Below are positions 5,931-35,521 of a DNA stretch of 41,015 nucleotides, piece by piece. The notes under the pieces are model-generated. The model did not search any database. It worked only from the letters and a program-made list of their open reading frames with translations, and was not told the DNA's origin. The stretch lies in the IMG/VR virus record IMGVR_UViG_2880389630_000006; one strand, given 5' to 3'. The position numbers and the translations under genes are program-made. Source of the stretch: a virus. Its lineage: Duplodnaviria; Heunggongvirae; Uroviricota; Caudoviricetes. Position 1 is the stretch's first letter. Every line of letters starts with the position of its first letter.

Positions 5931-5947
5931 ATTACCTTTCAGGTAAT
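5931..5947. promoter_or_regulatory. 17-bp palindromic operator ATTACC-TTTCA-GGTAAT
   Basis: Perfect inverted repeat; same motif family recurs at the immunity region and other promoters (see findings). Confidence 0.55.
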
Positions 5948-6327: not shown

Positions 6328-6592
6328 TTTACATCGCACTCCTCTTGTGCCATAGTAATCAGGCACTGGCAAAATCCAGTGCCGGGATTGGCGTCCCGGG
6401 TTACTACAGAGGCACATATGCCGCATAAGCGGTTTTTTTATGTGTAAAGCGCACCTATTCTATGGTGGGCTGTGTGGGGGCACCGAAAGGTGCGCCGGGT
6501 CCTTTGTAGCCGGTTACGCCAACCCTGCACAGTTCACCACCAACCGATTGGCGTCGGTAGTGGTGATTAACCTAACTACAAAGGTGATCACT

Positions 6593-7279
6593 ATGACTGC
6601 TAACGTAACCCCATCTGTTTTTCATTTTGAATCAGAAGCAACCATTCGAGCCATTGTTATTGATGGAAATCCTTGGTTTGTTGCCAAAGACGTTATTAAA
6701 GCTCTTCAACTGACAAACCCCACTATGTCAATAAAATCTCTTGATGATGATGAAAGGGCTAAATTTAACTTAGGCCGTCAAGGCGAAACCAATATTATCA
6801 ACGAGTCAGGCCTCTACACACTGATCCTCCGCTGCCGCGACGCAGTGACACCAGGCACTATCCCCTACCGCTTTCGTAAATGGGTTACAGGTGAGGTTCT
6901 TCCTCAGATCCGCCGCACCGGAAGTTACATTAAAAACTCGCTCCCGCAGGAAGAACGCATAAAGATGGTTGCCGACCAGGTAGCCAACGCCACAGCATCA
7001 GCAGTGATGCAGGCAATGAAGATAGAGAACAAAACCTACAGCGCCCCACTGAAGCCCGGCTACCGCAGTCTGATTCATTCTCCGTCTGGTGTTCTCGGCC
7101 TGACGGAGAACTCACTGCTGATGAATCTGCTGAACCAGTTACAGGACGACGGGCACGACGTATCGGGTGCGGCGGCAGAGCTGACCACCATGTTTTGCTA
7201 CATCGTCGGTGTGAGCAAATGCCTGCGTGATATCCAGACGCACGCGGAGTACATCAACGACAAGGCAGGGTTCTTCTGA
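6593..7279 (+). CDS. Phage antirepressor, Bro-N domain family
   Basis: ATG at 6593 with SD aaggtga; N-terminus (IRAIVIDGNPWFVAKDVIKALQL...ESGLYTLILRCRDAVTPGTIPYRFRKWVTGEVLPQIRRTGSY) is Bro-N/antirepressor-like. Confidence 0.8.
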   Translation: MTANVTPSVFHFESEATIRAIVIDGNPWFVAKDVIKALQLTNPTMSIKSLDDDERAKFNLGRQGETNIINESGLYTLILRCRDAVTPGTIPYRFRKWVTGEVLPQIRRTGSYIKNSLPQEERIKMVADQVANATASAVMQAMKIENKTYSAPLKPGYRSLIHSPSGVLGLTENSLLMNLLNQLQDDGHDVSGAAAELTTMFCYIVGVSKCLRDIQTHAEYINDKAGFF

Positions 7280-7343
7280 CGAGCGGCGGCACAGGGATGT
7301 GCCTTTAAATAATTCTGTACAGATTGCAGGTGAATAGCTTACT

Positions 7344-7360
7344 ATTACCTCACGGGTGAT
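7344..7360. promoter_or_regulatory. Operator-like site ATTACC-TCACG-GGTGAT (one mismatch)
   Basis: Same motif family; right half GGTGAT equals the lambda operator half-site. Confidence 0.35.
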
Positions 7361-7447
7361 CCATAGCGATTAGGCACCGATACAGGAGGAGCCCACATGA
7401 GAAAATTTGACGAGTACGAAGGCGTTTAACATTCGGATAGTTTAATG

Positions 7448-7471
7448 ACGGGGCCATTAGGCCCCGTTTTC
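7448..7471 (+). terminator. Rho-independent terminator / possible attenuator
   Basis: Stem acggggcc/ggccccgt with loop atta, then TTTT; sits between a 10-codon micro-ORF (7397-7429, strong AGGAGG SD) and the GTG start of the 7489 gene. Confidence 0.7.
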
Positions 7472-7488
7472 ATGTCTGGAGACAGTTT

Positions 7489-8028
7489 GTGTTAAGTGAA
7501 GAAATGCAATTTGCCATGGCTGTGGCTCAAATCGTAAGTGCAGTCGCGGTTTCGCTTGGCTTGTTCATAGCTATCGCTACTATTATTTATAATGTAAATA
7601 CAGCGAGAAAAGTACACACTTCAGTATTCCTTGGTGAAAGCAGGTTTGATGTAGATTATAAGAAAGGCCTATCTACTATGCGCCGCATTCACGAATCGAA
7701 CAAATCATTCCGCTCTTATATGTATCCAAGCAATGGGCAGGCTGATCTTACGGATGAAGAAAAGACAGAGAAGAGAGAAATAATTTACTGTCTAGGTTTC
7801 TACGAACGCATGGCTGTGAGCGTGAAGCGGAAAACTTATGATGAGACCATGATTAAGGAAGTATTTTACAGCTCCGTTGTAAATAACTATCAGATTGCGC
7901 TACCTCTTATACAAGCCATTAGAGAAAAAGAAAACATAAACACATATTTTAAAGAATATGAATGGTTGGCCACACGATGGAAGGATTGCCCATTGAAGGA
8001 TAAATCCCCGTGGTACAAGTTTTGGTAA
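7489..8028 (+). CDS. Membrane-anchored protein of unknown function (AT-rich moron; candidate superinfection-exclusion or abortive-infection protein)
   Basis: 179 aa; GTG start with SD ggag 8 nt upstream (alternative ATG at 7504); single N-terminal TM helix (AMAVAQIVSAVAVSLGLFIAIATIIY) then a soluble domain; markedly AT-rich relative to its neighbours; opposite strand to the structural operon. Confidence 0.6.
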   Translation: MLSEEMQFAMAVAQIVSAVAVSLGLFIAIATIIYNVNTARKVHTSVFLGESRFDVDYKKGLSTMRRIHESNKSFRSYMYPSNGQADLTDEEKTEKREIIYCLGFYERMAVSVKRKTYDETMIKEVFYSSVVNNYQIALPLIQAIREKENINTYFKEYEWLATRWKDCPLKDKSPWYKFW

Positions 8029-8029
8029 G

Positions 8030-8052
8030 CCAGCGCTGCGGGCTTTTTTTTG
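8030..8052 (+). terminator. Probable intrinsic terminator after the membrane-protein gene
   Basis: GC-rich imperfect dyad (gccagcgctgcgggc) immediately followed by TTTTTTTT. Confidence 0.45.
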
Positions 8053-8123
8053 TGGACGAAACAAAAGTCAGTGCTACACTCATTGACGCCACATTGAGGT
8101 GGCTTATGGATGGAAATTTCACA

Positions 8124-8285
8124 ATGAAAAAAGCATTTGCTGCACTGTTCGTTTTGTTGTCTCTGGTAGCTTCAACTCAGGCCTTTGCCGGCCGTTGTCA
8201 GCACGACAGCGATACTGCCGCTGACGGCTCCCGCTGCGGTGGGCGTTCTGCGGATTCCCGCCCTGGCGGCGGTGGCATTCGTTAA
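8124..8285 (+). CDS. Possible small secreted Cys-containing peptide
   Basis: MKKAFAALFVLLSLVASTQAFA signal peptide then a 31-aa Gly/Arg/Asp-rich segment with 2 Cys; weak SD (alternative ATG at 8106). Speculative. Confidence 0.3.
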   Translation: MKKAFAALFVLLSLVASTQAFAGRCQHDSDTAADGSRCGGRSADSRPGGGGIR

Positions 8286-8308
8286 AAACAAGGCCGCGAA
8301 AGCGGCCT
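8282..8308 (-). terminator. Rho-independent terminator ending the minus-strand structural operon
   Basis: Perfect hairpin aggccgc-gaaa-gcggcct (8291-8308), followed on the minus strand by a T-run (plus-strand aaaaac at 8284-8289). Confidence 0.6.
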
Positions 8309-8320
8309 GTGACATGTCAC
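8309..8320. repeat. 12-bp perfect palindrome GTGACATGTCAC, copy 1 of 3 (function unknown)
   Basis: Exact sequence; lies between the lipoprotein stop codon and the terminator hairpin. Confidence 0.9.
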
Positions 8321-8323
8321 GAC

Positions 8324-8737
8324 TTATAAAGATGACTGATATTTTACAACTCTGTTCATGGCATCTTTTTTCACCGAGCTGATATCAGTTCTTATTTTGG
8401 CTTCGTCATTACTGCTTATCATGCTATTAATTTTTTGCACTGACATGCCGTTTCTTTCAGCCATTGCACATACAGCAGCATCGTATGAAGAACTCGCTGC
8501 GATGGATATCACCTTGTTACACTCAAACACAGCACCTTCAGCAATATCAGATGCCGATGAGGCTGGCTTGGTATAAGTCTTGACGTAGTGATCAATACAA
8601 CTATCCTTCGCCGTCTTGGCAAGAGAAAAATCCACTTTAACTTTGTCGCAATATGCCTTATCAACACCGTCATAAACATCATAGGATGTCGAGCAAGCGG
8701 ATATCAAAAATACCGATAACAGCAATAATTCCTTCAT
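8324..8737 (-). CDS. Lipoprotein, last gene of the structural operon (candidate receptor-masking or exclusion lipoprotein, or tail accessory protein)
   Basis: Lipobox LISAC after a signal peptide; SD aaggaac; 6 further Cys residues; immediately downstream of the 824-aa virion protein gene. Confidence 0.65.
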   Translation of the reverse strand: MKELLLLSVFLISACSTSYDVYDGVDKAYCDKVKVDFSLAKTAKDSCIDHYVKTYTKPASSASDIAEGAVFECNKVISIAASSSYDAAVCAMAERNGMSVQKINSMISSNDEAKIRTDISSVKKDAMNRVVKYQSSL

Positions 8738-24793: not shown

Positions 24794-24831
24794 TTGACAT
24801 TTAACGCGTGAATTATTACCTTTCAGGTAAC
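24794..24831 (+). promoter_or_regulatory. Putative promoter (TTGACA -35) with overlapping operator ATTACC-TTTCA-GGTAAC upstream of the tRNA
   Basis: TTGACA at 24794-24799; the 16-bp operator core at 24815-24830 is identical to the site at 5931. The -10 element is ambiguous. Confidence 0.4.
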
Positions 24832-34682: not shown

Positions 34683-34747
34683 TTCACCCATAAGGTAACA
34701 AAAATCAAGGATAGTTACCTATGGGGTGCATTTACCTGTTGGGTAAT
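34683..34747. promoter_or_regulatory. Immunity-region operator cluster (three 17-bp sites) with divergent promoters
   Basis: Sites TTCACC-CATAA-GGTAAC (34683-34699), GTTACC-TATGG-GGTGCA (34714-34730), TTTACC-TGTTG-GGTAAT (34731-34747) in the 154-bp gap between the Cro-like and repressor genes. Confidence 0.55.
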
Positions 34748-34801: not shown

Positions 34802-35386
34802 ATGAAAAGTATCCAGGACGTCCGCAGGCAAAATCTCAACGACTTGATCGACCGTGAATTCAATGGTGTTCAGACGCGGATGGCAGAAAAACTTGGAACT
34901 CAGGCAAATCTGGTAAACCGCTGGGCTCTTGGCAAGAAGGTTATCGGCGACCAGGTTGCGCGAAAAATTGAAGCTGCCGCCAATAAACCCCGTAACTGGC
35001 TTGATATCGATCGCTCGCTTTCTCAGGAAGGTTTTCAGCCTGTCGGCCCAAGCGACATTGGTCAGCTGGCAGCTCACAACCTGGAACGCTGGATGAGTGA
35101 AAGCCGCGACCTTTCAACTCAGGGAAAACTTCACCGCGCATCCGGCGTCGCCCAGGTGACAATCAGCCGCCTGTTAAACAATGAGGTCAGCGTTTCCATT
35201 TCCACCCTGGAGAATGTTGCATCCGCATTCGGGCGTCACGGATATGAACTACTGATTCACCCGCACGACCCTGCGACTATCAACTATGACCGCTCACGCT
35301 ACGCATTGTTACCCGAAACCGAGAAAGCAAAGATCGAAAGTTACATTGAATTTGTCATCAACCAGAACGAAAAAAACAAACAATAA
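34802..35386 (+). CDS. Prophage repressor, tandem HTH-XRE domains, no S24 peptidase domain
   Basis: Two HTH-like segments (GVQTRMAEKLGTQANLVNRW and ASGVAQVTISRLLNNEVSVSISTLENVASAF); no Ala-Gly/Ser-Lys autocleavage motifs; divergent to the Cro-like gene. Confidence 0.65.
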   Translation: MKSIQDVRRQNLNDLIDREFNGVQTRMAEKLGTQANLVNRWALGKKVIGDQVARKIEAAANKPRNWLDIDRSLSQEGFQPVGPSDIGQLAAHNLERWMSESRDLSTQGKLHRASGVAQVTISRLLNNEVSVSISTLENVASAFGRHGYELLIHPHDPATINYDRSRYALLPETEKAKIESYIEFVINQNEKNKQ

Positions 35387-35442: not shown

Positions 35443-35521
35443 ATTACCTAACGGGTAATTTTTTTAACTCATATCTATTGACATCAAACCATATACGCAT
35501 AATTATTACCTCAACGGTAAC
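35443..35521 (+). promoter_or_regulatory. Early promoter with two operators (OL-like)
   Basis: ATTACC-TAACG-GGTAAT (35443-35459); TTGACA at 35478-35483; A/T-rich -10 region overlapped by ATTACC-TCAAC-GGTAAC (35505-35521). Confidence 0.5.

Follow-up and report, generated by a model that had tools for sequence, protein, structure and literature searches.

The stretch of DNA analysed here, IMG/VR virus record IMGVR_UViG_2880389630_000006 (41,015 nt at its full length, and called the window in what follows), represents an Escherichia coli prophage akin to phiV10 and epsilon15 (Uetakevirus). Our subject is the leader at 7344-7488, which lies between the BRO-N antirepressor gene ant (stop codon 7277-7279), its 5' neighbour, and an AT-rich gene at 7489-8028 that starts with GTG and encodes a membrane protein of 179 residues belonging to the DUF4760 family. 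The leader holds a very short open reading frame (ORF), termed the micro-ORF here, at 7397-7429 (ATG AGA AAA TTT GAC GAG TAC GAA GGC GTT TAA, with the stop codon at 7427-7429), which encodes the peptide MRKFDEYEGV and is preceded by the Shine-Dalgarno (SD) sequence AGGAGG at 7385-7390, with a spacer of 6 nt to the ATG. An AU-rich spacer of 17 nt (7430-7446) leads from the stop codon to an intrinsic terminator at 7447-7476, in which the stem formed by 7447-7455 and 7460-7468 (core CGGGGCC/GGCCCCG) is closed by the loop AUUA and followed by the tail UUUUCAUGU. The hairpin has a folding energy of -18.4 kcal/mol (z = -3.7); a simple scan for terminators did not pick up 7447-7476, because a G-U extension of the stem uses up part of the T run. 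Right behind the T run, and 7 nt 5' of the GTG at 7489, stands the SD sequence of the DUF4760 gene, GGAG (7478-7481), the distance from the T run to the start codon being 17 nt. The DUF4760 gene and all of these leader elements lie on the plus strand. The initial annotation of this stretch had already recognised the ten-codon ORF with its AGGAGG, the strong intrinsic terminator, and the GTG start of an AT-rich membrane-protein gene 17 nt after the terminator, and each of these observations stands. RefSeq uses the identical GTG start for the DUF4760 gene, and this gene and the BRO-N gene are all that it annotates there; the micro-ORF is absent from RefSeq and is currently overlooked by annotation pipelines.

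Relatives of the locus were gathered in two ways. A degenerate search for sequences coding for the peptide in viral contigs returned three diverged prophages, in which the same peptide is encoded with one synonymous change, the terminator has the same stem with a different loop, and the DUF4760 protein is 89-94% identical. The second approach used homology to the DUF4760 protein and was independent of the micro-ORF; a first scan of the contigs with the single protein as query had found no match. In every informative DUF4760 relative examined, from 99% down to ~30% protein identity, the micro-ORF lies directly upstream of the gene. The enterobacterial loci have an ORF of 10-11 codons whose last residues before the stop are DE[YF][ED]G[VFLC] (L-V in one case); a GC hairpin, its T run, an SD sequence and the start codon follow. 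Homologues at 94-53% identity come from Raoultella, Serratia, Klebsiella, Pantoea, Erwinia, Yersinia and others, and at 42-55% identity the same layout recurs in 13 species-representative genomes and ~45 further viral contigs. Relatives in Pseudomonas phages (~32% identity to the window protein) have ORFs of 15-21 codons with EEYEG[IFL] ahead of the stop, and a GGAGRCC hairpin with its U run comes next. Two loci, L153 and L154, whose proteins are ~31% identical to that of Alteromonas phage P24 (itself 26% identical to the window protein), carry ORFs ending in DENDGY-stop with the terminator further downstream, and phage P24 has MNLRDGWDDI-stop and no clear terminator.

The genomic contexts of these loci are varied. 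The cassette follows ant in Uetakevirus-like prophages, stands among the tail genes of lambda-like prophages, lies between the portal gene gpQ and the replication gene gpA in P2-like phages, and in one locus has no phage genes nearby. The Uetakevirus-like and lambda-like contexts and the locus without phage genes belong to relatives at 94-53% identity, and P2-like phages are among those at 42-55%. The gpQ-gpA interval of P2 is a hotspot of phage defence genes (Rousset et al., PMC9122126). On these comparisons the micro-ORF, the terminator and the DUF4760 gene form a cassette that moves as a linked trio, and their association is not a matter of chance. The trio, which phages of many gamma-proteobacteria retain, is a real control unit, and apparently one that is undescribed as far as the searched libraries show: Pfam and NCBIfam contained no family matching the versions of the peptide of 20-21 residues, no Rfam family matched 7280-7490 (threshold E<=1) or any of four related loci (threshold E<=0.1), a plasmid search gave no match, and in our literature search the peptide motif was not mentioned and DUF4760 was named in passing only.

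Analysis of the micro-ORF at the codon level proved informative in deciding what is conserved in it. Across 37 distinct nucleotide versions, the summed entropy of the last seven codons is 7.7 bits at third positions and 1.6 and 2.0 bits at first and second positions, figures to be read with the caveat that the pattern used to gather the 37 ORFs fixes some first and second codon positions. Mean entropy per site is 0.54 bits in the micro-ORF and rises to 1.58 and 1.69 bits in the 21 nt that flank it upstream and downstream, respectively, and the stop codon is TAA in 35 of the versions and TGA in 2. With a much looser filter, applied to loci chosen by homology, the micro-ORF was found in every informative case. 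Judged by these figures, the substitution pattern of the micro-ORF is of the coding type. The motif of the family, [DE][DE]x[DE]G-hydrophobic-stop, was found in all informative DUF4760 loci; it always abuts the stop codon and is preceded by an N-terminal part of 3-14 residues, as in MRKFDEYEGV, MKKLFDEFDGF, MAIKREPLLVAVVVREEYEGI and ..VLDENDGY, and strong SD sequences (AGGAG, GGGGG, GAGGAGG) stand ahead of the micro-ORF in all relatives. The motif is recognisable where DUF4760 is down to ~30% identity, and its persistence beyond most of the DUF4760 sequence suggests that it has a highly conserved target, as the ribosome would be.

These data bear directly on one explanation of the leader, in which the micro-ORF would be a chance ORF or the remnant of a displaced gene and the terminator would mark the end of the ant operon. 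It has in its favour that the site is one of mosaic cargo, with breaks in homology at ~7357 and 7442. However, the micro-ORF and terminator go with DUF4760 in unrelated phages that have no ant nearby, and ant has a hairpin of its own at 7288-7305; the comparative data already contradict this explanation, which we regard as hardly credible. The related idea of a displaced gene whose truncated start would be the micro-ORF was rejected, the 10-codon ORF with its own stop being intact in every context.

The terminator lies between micro-ORF and gene in nearly all loci. In the window's clade, RNAalifold found compensatory changes in three of its eight pairs among 13 diverse leaders, and across clades there are 12 different core stems, all of them paired (e.g. 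CGGGGCC, CGGGACC, GCGGGGC, GGCGGGG, GGCGGAGA, GCGGAGC, GGAGGCC); within the P2-like clade alone the covariation is modest. The hairpin probably works as a terminator in vivo. In the relatives the T run is followed by GGAG or GGA, and both SD sequence and start codon come within ~10-20 nt. Because the corresponding gap in the window is only 17 nt and no internal promoter was found in the leader (TTGACG-like -35 candidates occur in the micro-ORF, none of them, as judged by eye, with a usable -10 at 16-18 nt), transcription of the DUF4760 gene must cross the terminator, which fits limited or conditional expression. The general idea of the initial annotation, that the leader conditions expression of the membrane protein, is supported by this obligatory passage together with the co-occurrence of the three elements, the coding pattern and the covariation of the stem. 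In one P2-like relative (L105, IMG/VR 2718217897_000009) unrelated sequence stands between the two arms of the terminator, the 5' arm staying with the micro-ORF, and the loop sequence GGGATTTGCTCCC occurs on both sides, as for an insertion into the terminator loop.

It was further proposed in that annotation that the layout is typical of leader-peptide attenuation, and here our view differs. In the classical forms there is either a choice between antiterminator and terminator, as in trp and his, or a ribosome at the stop codon that covers the 5' arm of the terminator, as in MsrDL and pyrE, and a short ORF with a strong SD sequence, followed by an intrinsic terminator and then a gene, is consistent with both. 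The trp, his, thr and pheA attenuators have regulatory codon runs and mutually exclusive 1:2, 2:3 and 3:4 hairpins. Like them, the present leader has an ORF with a good SD sequence, a terminator just before the first gene and expression that depends on read-through; unlike them, it has no regulatory codon run or repeated codon class, only scattered Asp and Glu codons in MRKFDEYEGV, and no conserved alternative helix, and selection acts on the peptide sequence itself. Nor is there an antiterminator that could compete energetically: the fold of the leader in the window has -41.5 kcal/mol, the best fold with the 3' arm blocked has -23.5 kcal/mol, and for the nascent leader, taken as far as the hairpin loop, shuffled sequences fold just as well (z = +0.48).

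Direct occlusion of the hairpin meets a difficulty of distance. When the stop codon occupies the A site of a terminating ribosome, ~10 nt downstream are covered, and in the window the first paired base is 17 nt and the GC core 19 nt from the stop codon. Since the core lies 17-21 nt past the stop codon in 42 of 46 enterobacterial leaders and the ribosome covers only ~10 nt, occlusion of the MsrDL type cannot apply as such. The msrDL-msrD attenuator of streptococci consists of an ORF of six codons, a Rho-independent terminator and the regulated gene, and in it the nascent peptide holds the ribosome at UAA so that no antiterminator is needed (PMC10314930); it shows that a very short ORF with a ribosome stalled at UAA can attenuate in this way. 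The order of very short ORF, intrinsic terminator and gene is common to both systems. They differ in that the hairpin core stands ~19 nt past the stop codon here (up to ~70 nt in distant clades), that no ligand is known here, and that stalling here is putative. Because of the missing conserved antiterminator and the ~19 nt between stop codon and hairpin, neither trp-type nor MsrDL-type attenuation fits the leader, and we consider classical attenuation very improbable.

RNAalifold analysis of 19 P2-like leaders brought out two helices besides the terminator, namely a 5-bp hairpin at the stop codon and a weak pairing of the A-rich start of the micro-ORF with the U run, and neither of them competes with the terminator. 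The stop-codon hairpin, in which the Gly codon and the last codon pair with bases just past the stop, is significant in 10 of 43 leaders and is real, with covariation, in the Phe-ending and Pseudomonas clades. In the window the start region of the micro-ORF, ACAUGAGAA, can likewise pair with the T run UUUUCAUGU. This pairing is of interest for a further alternative, in which a constitutive, leaky terminator would keep expression of a harmful membrane protein low and insulate it, and the micro-ORF would be a helper that just loads ribosomes, with no signal and no function of the peptide. The layout is compatible with such an arrangement, and pairing of the micro-ORF start with the T run, or of the A-run with the U-run in the P2-like clade, means that translation of the micro-ORF could open the ribosome-binding region of DUF4760. 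What the alternative leaves unexplained is the amino-acid conservation of a C-terminal motif of 6-7 residues where every flanking base has changed across clades, and also the near-universal UAA (35 of 37), and for us it is an improbable account of the leader.

Three other ways of coupling the micro-ORF to what follows it were tried and rejected. Fixed spacing as a sign of steric coupling is tight in Enterobacterales and runs from ~15 to ~70 nt in distant clades. A bypass like that of T4 gene 60, joining the peptide to DUF4760, would have to pass the in-frame stop that occurs between hairpin and start codon in 16 of the 51 leaders scored that are linked to DUF4760. Programmed read-through of the UAA was dismissed as a conserved mechanism on the finding that only 34 of 50 leaders keep the frame open across the hairpin, and that in some leaders a second in-frame stop comes one codon later. 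In the window itself the frame of the micro-ORF is open past its stop and through the terminator to a TAA at 7493-7495, which overlaps the GTG, and a GUU at 7424 and an in-frame GUC at 7474 are exactly 50 nt apart; neither feature is conserved in the relatives.

A different emphasis would be to see the terminated transcript of ~120 nt as the main product, a small RNA with a dual function in base-pairing and in coding for the peptide, and DUF4760 as a by-product of read-through. Hfq-binding RNAs have a GC hairpin with a U tail after an AU-rich stretch, and the end of the leader is of this form; the segment 7394-7480 also folds well (z = -3.6), and the prophage encodes isrK, whose role is dual, 1 kb further upstream. 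On the other hand, conservation of the leader is poor except in the micro-ORF and the hairpin (1.6-1.7 bits per site in the flanks), no conserved single-stranded stretch resembling a seed is visible, and the tight linkage to DUF4760 is left unexplained, all of which makes this a decidedly remote prospect.

The upstream end of the cassette is formed by a putative sigma-70 promoter at 7316-7345 on the plus strand, with TACTAT (7340-7345) as -10 and either TTGCAG (7324-7329) or TGTACA (7316-7321) as -35. TTGCAG is only 10 nt from the -10 because of a 7-bp deletion, and the alternative, TGTACA, is 18 nt away. In the alignments the promoter is TTGCAG-17-TACTAT in alleles without the deletion and TTGCAA-17-TAATAT or TAAGAT in relatives; a scan with the consensus promoter left the cassette promoter under its threshold, and we consider its activity probable. 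The deletion removes GACTGGG at 7329/7330 in comparison with the alleles of TL-2011b, IAI39 and ETEC and leaves a spacer of 10 instead of 17 nt, and deleted and undeleted alleles are both common, each being found with both types of cargo.

The -10/+1 region is covered by a 17-bp operator at 7344-7360, ATTACCTCACGGGTGAT, a member of the ATTACC-N5-GGTAAT family. The initial annotation was right to see an operator there and less so in calling it degenerate: it has one mismatch to the palindrome, and at up to two mismatches the window has 29 matches where 2.45 are expected, a number that none of 100 shuffles reached. Further copies stand in the immunity region, at 34683 and 34731 between a Cro-like ORF and a 194-residue HTH_3 protein (34802-35386) and at 35443 and 35505 after the HTH_3 gene, and another at 5931 ahead of the ant operon. 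The excess over expectation and the copies in the immunity region make 7344-7360 a good operator, and because the other copies cluster around the Cro-like ORF, the HTH_3 gene and the ant operon, it is most likely the binding site of the prophage repressor. The palindrome is found at the cassette promoter in most relatives, P2-like phages included (loci L059-L135), and the operator either moves with the cassette or gets re-acquired. Additional copies in the window, at 24815, 27993, 28011, 32338 and 32400, belong to a set that marks the immunity region and several promoters, and a P88-like genome with the cassette has no second copy of the palindrome. Many cassettes also have direct repeats on their 5' side (TTGGTTCGTC six times in an Erwinia locus, GTTTCAY repeats, and TTGTGCA three times in P2-like phages), and in some the palindrome TTGCTCAAAnTTGAGCAA extends across the -35 region (these observations come from loci L053, L097, L040, L047, L059, L060, L102, L113 and L116); the repeats and the palindrome are possible sites of further regulators.

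Taking these elements together, we see the region as the 5' leader of a mobile cassette, running from promoter and operator through a strongly translated micro-ORF and an intrinsic terminator to DUF4760. The prophage repressor would repress the cassette promoter. Transcripts begun at the leader or entering it would mostly end at the terminator, and the DUF4760 membrane protein would be made from read-through RNA only. The micro-ORF is translated, with selection keeping its C-terminal residues (FDEYEGV here), and the nascent peptide would act in cis on the ribosome at the UAA stop, where the behaviour of that ribosome would set the amount of DUF4760 through read-through of the terminator, access to the ribosome-binding site of DUF4760, or both. 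That the micro-ORF is in this manner a sequence-specific, cis-acting ORF gating the read-through or the translation of DUF4760 is the reading we tentatively favour, and we hold it to be a plausible account that stops somewhat short of being probable.

Our slight preference for a peptide acting in cis has three grounds: the motif abuts the stop codon with free length on its N-terminal side, it outlasts the DUF4760 sequence, and known short conserved upstream ORFs combined with terminators are cis regulators. The position of the motif in the micro-ORF follows the pattern of peptides acting near the peptidyl-transferase centre, such as TnaC and MsrDL (the latter in PMC10314930). TnaC, SpeFL and MgtL of E. 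coli and Salmonella, of 17-34 residues, act via Rho-dependent termination or refolding of RNA, and MgtL shows that a short nascent chain can destabilise the ribosome by means of acidic residues close to its N-terminus. The resemblance of our leader to these systems lies in a conserved short peptide encoded upstream and, on their side, in an action at or near the stop codon or within the first residues; it differs from them in that no sequence is shared with DE[FY][DE]G and that the terminator here is intrinsic.

Several findings weigh against a peptide acting in cis at the stop codon. The peptide contains no known stalling motif, and no physical link between translation of the micro-ORF and the terminator was found. 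In 42 of 46 enterobacterial leaders the GC core is 17-21 nt past the stop codon, beyond the cover of the ribosome, and in distant clades the gap between stop codon and hairpin, read from the sequences, ranges from ~15 to ~70 nt, which makes a fixed steric relation unlikely. Among the 13 leaders of the window's clade RNAalifold found no conserved helix besides the terminator and no alternative to it, and the stop-codon hairpin is absent from this clade (z about 0). In the prophages of the type found in strain IAI39, the same micro-ORF stands ahead of another gene, of PHROG 1349 and for a protein of 211 residues, which follows past 7442, and the terminator is missing. Finally, the whole of the analysis is a comparison of sequences.

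Some of the same observations suit another explanation better, in which the cassette would be a module of two genes. The peptide of ten residues would be a labile inhibitor, an antitoxin or a ligand of DUF4760, and the terminator would fix a large excess of peptide without any regulated read-through. That no antiterminator was found and that the distance from stop codon to hairpin is variable in distant clades agree with this, as does the presence of the micro-ORF in every DUF4760 locus, which is to be expected if its loss were harmful. A motif at the extreme C-terminus, with its free carboxylate, would also suit a peptide ligand, the basic residues that are invariant in DUF4760 (K41, R52, R75, R107, K123, R145 and K147) could bind an acidic peptide, and the cassette occupies sites of phage defence or exclusion (gpQ-gpA in P2-like phages, the tail genes in lambda-like ones). 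There is a parallel in ToxIN, a type III system of toxin-antitoxin and abortive infection, in which one promoter serves both elements and a terminator between toxI and toxN sets a high ratio of antitoxin to toxin; a soluble endoribonuclease acts there as toxin and processes the tandemly repeated RNA that is its antitoxin, and the system is carried on mobile elements and protects against phage. Promoter, short upstream element, intrinsic terminator and gene follow each other in the same order in ToxIN and in our cassette; unlike ToxIN, the latter has a translated ORF of ten codons upstream and a membrane-anchored DUF4760 protein downstream, and no tandem repeat is visible in the sequence of its leader, on which no repeat finder was run.

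Against a two-gene module it must be said that the peptide is more conserved than its supposed partner, that PADLOC has no model matching DUF4760, and that there is no precedent for an antitoxin of ten residues, since we know of no free cytoplasmic peptide of this size that acts as one. In a Uetakevirus lysogen, moreover, the operator over the promoter would silence both genes, and the module would therefore be a poor fit to a standing defence. We regard the two-gene explanation as a serious contender, though on the whole a doubtful one.

The favoured reading, of a peptide acting in cis, can be carried a step further. The micro-ORF might represent a new kind of ribosome-sensing leader peptide, with [DE][DE]x[DE]G-hydrophobic before UAA, whose termination behaviour would report the state of the cell and license read-through into a membrane effector of defence or exclusion hotspots; the states sensed may be, for example, disturbed translation or ion balance during phage attack or prophage induction. 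This extension we think rather unlikely as it stands.

The DUF4760 protein has an N-terminal transmembrane helix and a helical domain. It matches Pfam DUF4760 (PF15956) at 8e-31 and belongs to PHROG 2284, a family of unknown function; NCBIfam and Pfam gave nothing beyond DUF4760 for it, and a fold search of BFVD gave no match. The AlphaFold2 model has a pLDDT of 86, and there may be a resemblance between the soluble domain (residues ~50-179) and the EP domain found in EDS1, PAD4 and SAG101, which are immune proteins of plants. After the gene, AAGCC-AGCGCUGCG-GGCUU and a U8 tail form a candidate 3' terminator of the cassette at 8027-8051 (plus strand), with a weak stem of -7.2 kcal/mol that is not better than shuffles and is called a probable terminator because of the U8 tail alone.

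The cassette sits in a variable site of the prophage. The region 6400-8400 consists of piecewise matches to phiV10, TL-2011b and related phages, and 7270-8100 is found at 97-99.8% identity in prophages of 40 of 5426 complete E. coli genomes. Nine nucleotides past the ant stop codon a small hairpin, GGCACA-GGGA-UGUGCC then UUUAAAUAAUU, lies at 7288-7305 on the plus strand (-10.1 kcal/mol, z = -2.7); it is kept in the TL-2011b, IAI39 and ETEC alleles, closes the ant operon as a weak terminator-like element, and opens a segment common to other cargo variants. In phiV10 there is nothing between ant and the convergent terminator. In the TL-2011b and Phi05 phages homology to the window includes the small hairpin, the putative promoter and the operator and stops at ~7357, beyond which these phages have a YafO-type toxin pair or other genes. 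In 11 E. coli genomes, for example IAI39, homology goes on through the whole micro-ORF to 7442, within the AU-rich spacer. At this junction of the IAI39 type (L004 2501-3282 and 10 other genomes) promoter, operator and micro-ORF are joined to the PHROG 1349 cargo, with a weak AU hairpin alone between the micro-ORF and the 211-residue gene, whose product had no match in Pfam, NCBIfam or PADLOC; a change of Tyr to His in the micro-ORF was seen in this context only.

An own, inferred promoter, a weak U8 terminator, a variable site, deviant GC content (0.52-0.57 in ant and 0.39-0.41 in the DUF4760 gene) and breakpoints at ~7357 and 7442 are the features of a phage moron. The textbook moron is an accessory gene with its own promoter and a terminator after the gene. 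What the cassette has in common with it is an accessory gene, rich in AT and with a promoter of its own, that occupies variable cargo sites in several families of phages; the difference is a strong terminator also between promoter and gene, behind a conserved micro-ORF.

A few observations concern the borders of this site. The segment 7951-8060, made up of the last 78 nt of the DUF4760 gene and the U8 terminator, is 84-94% identical to ~40 E. coli loci that lack DUF4760, where it is unannotated, and the cargo site probably has its right-hand boundary of recombination here. It is followed at 8117-8308 by a small ORF with a start like a signal peptide (MKKAFAALFVLLSLVASTQAFAG...), common to TL-2011b, where it is a 'putative transmembrane anchored protein', and at 8291-8308, after this ORF, by a terminator-like hairpin of the minus strand between convergent genes. 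On the other side, just 5' of ant, Rfam recognises c4-a1b1 targets (6350-6402), isrK (6363-6439, 74.7 bits) and C4 antisense RNA (6458-6544, 79.5 bits); the RNAs of 6350-6544 are an immI RNA control of the P1/P7 type in a Uetakevirus prophage, and the same trio is present in a Klebsiella relative (L044 1320-1520). The mechanically called ORF 6440-7279 overlaps C4, and RefSeq has the start of ant ~147 nt further 3'.

What the cassette means for the biology of these phages depends on which explanation is true. If the two-gene module were correct, MRKFDEYEGV and its relatives would be, to our knowledge, the smallest known peptide partner of a toxin-like membrane protein. If instead the micro-ORF acts in cis, as we tentatively favour, it would be a deeply conserved and very small regulatory ORF that stands outside all textbook schemes of attenuation. 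It would then offer a compact test case of ribosome and transcription, with ten codons, one hairpin and one reporter, for which ~40 natural sequence variants already show which residues matter. It would also give research on phage defence a handle on DUF4760, a family of unknown function that resides in known defence hotspots.

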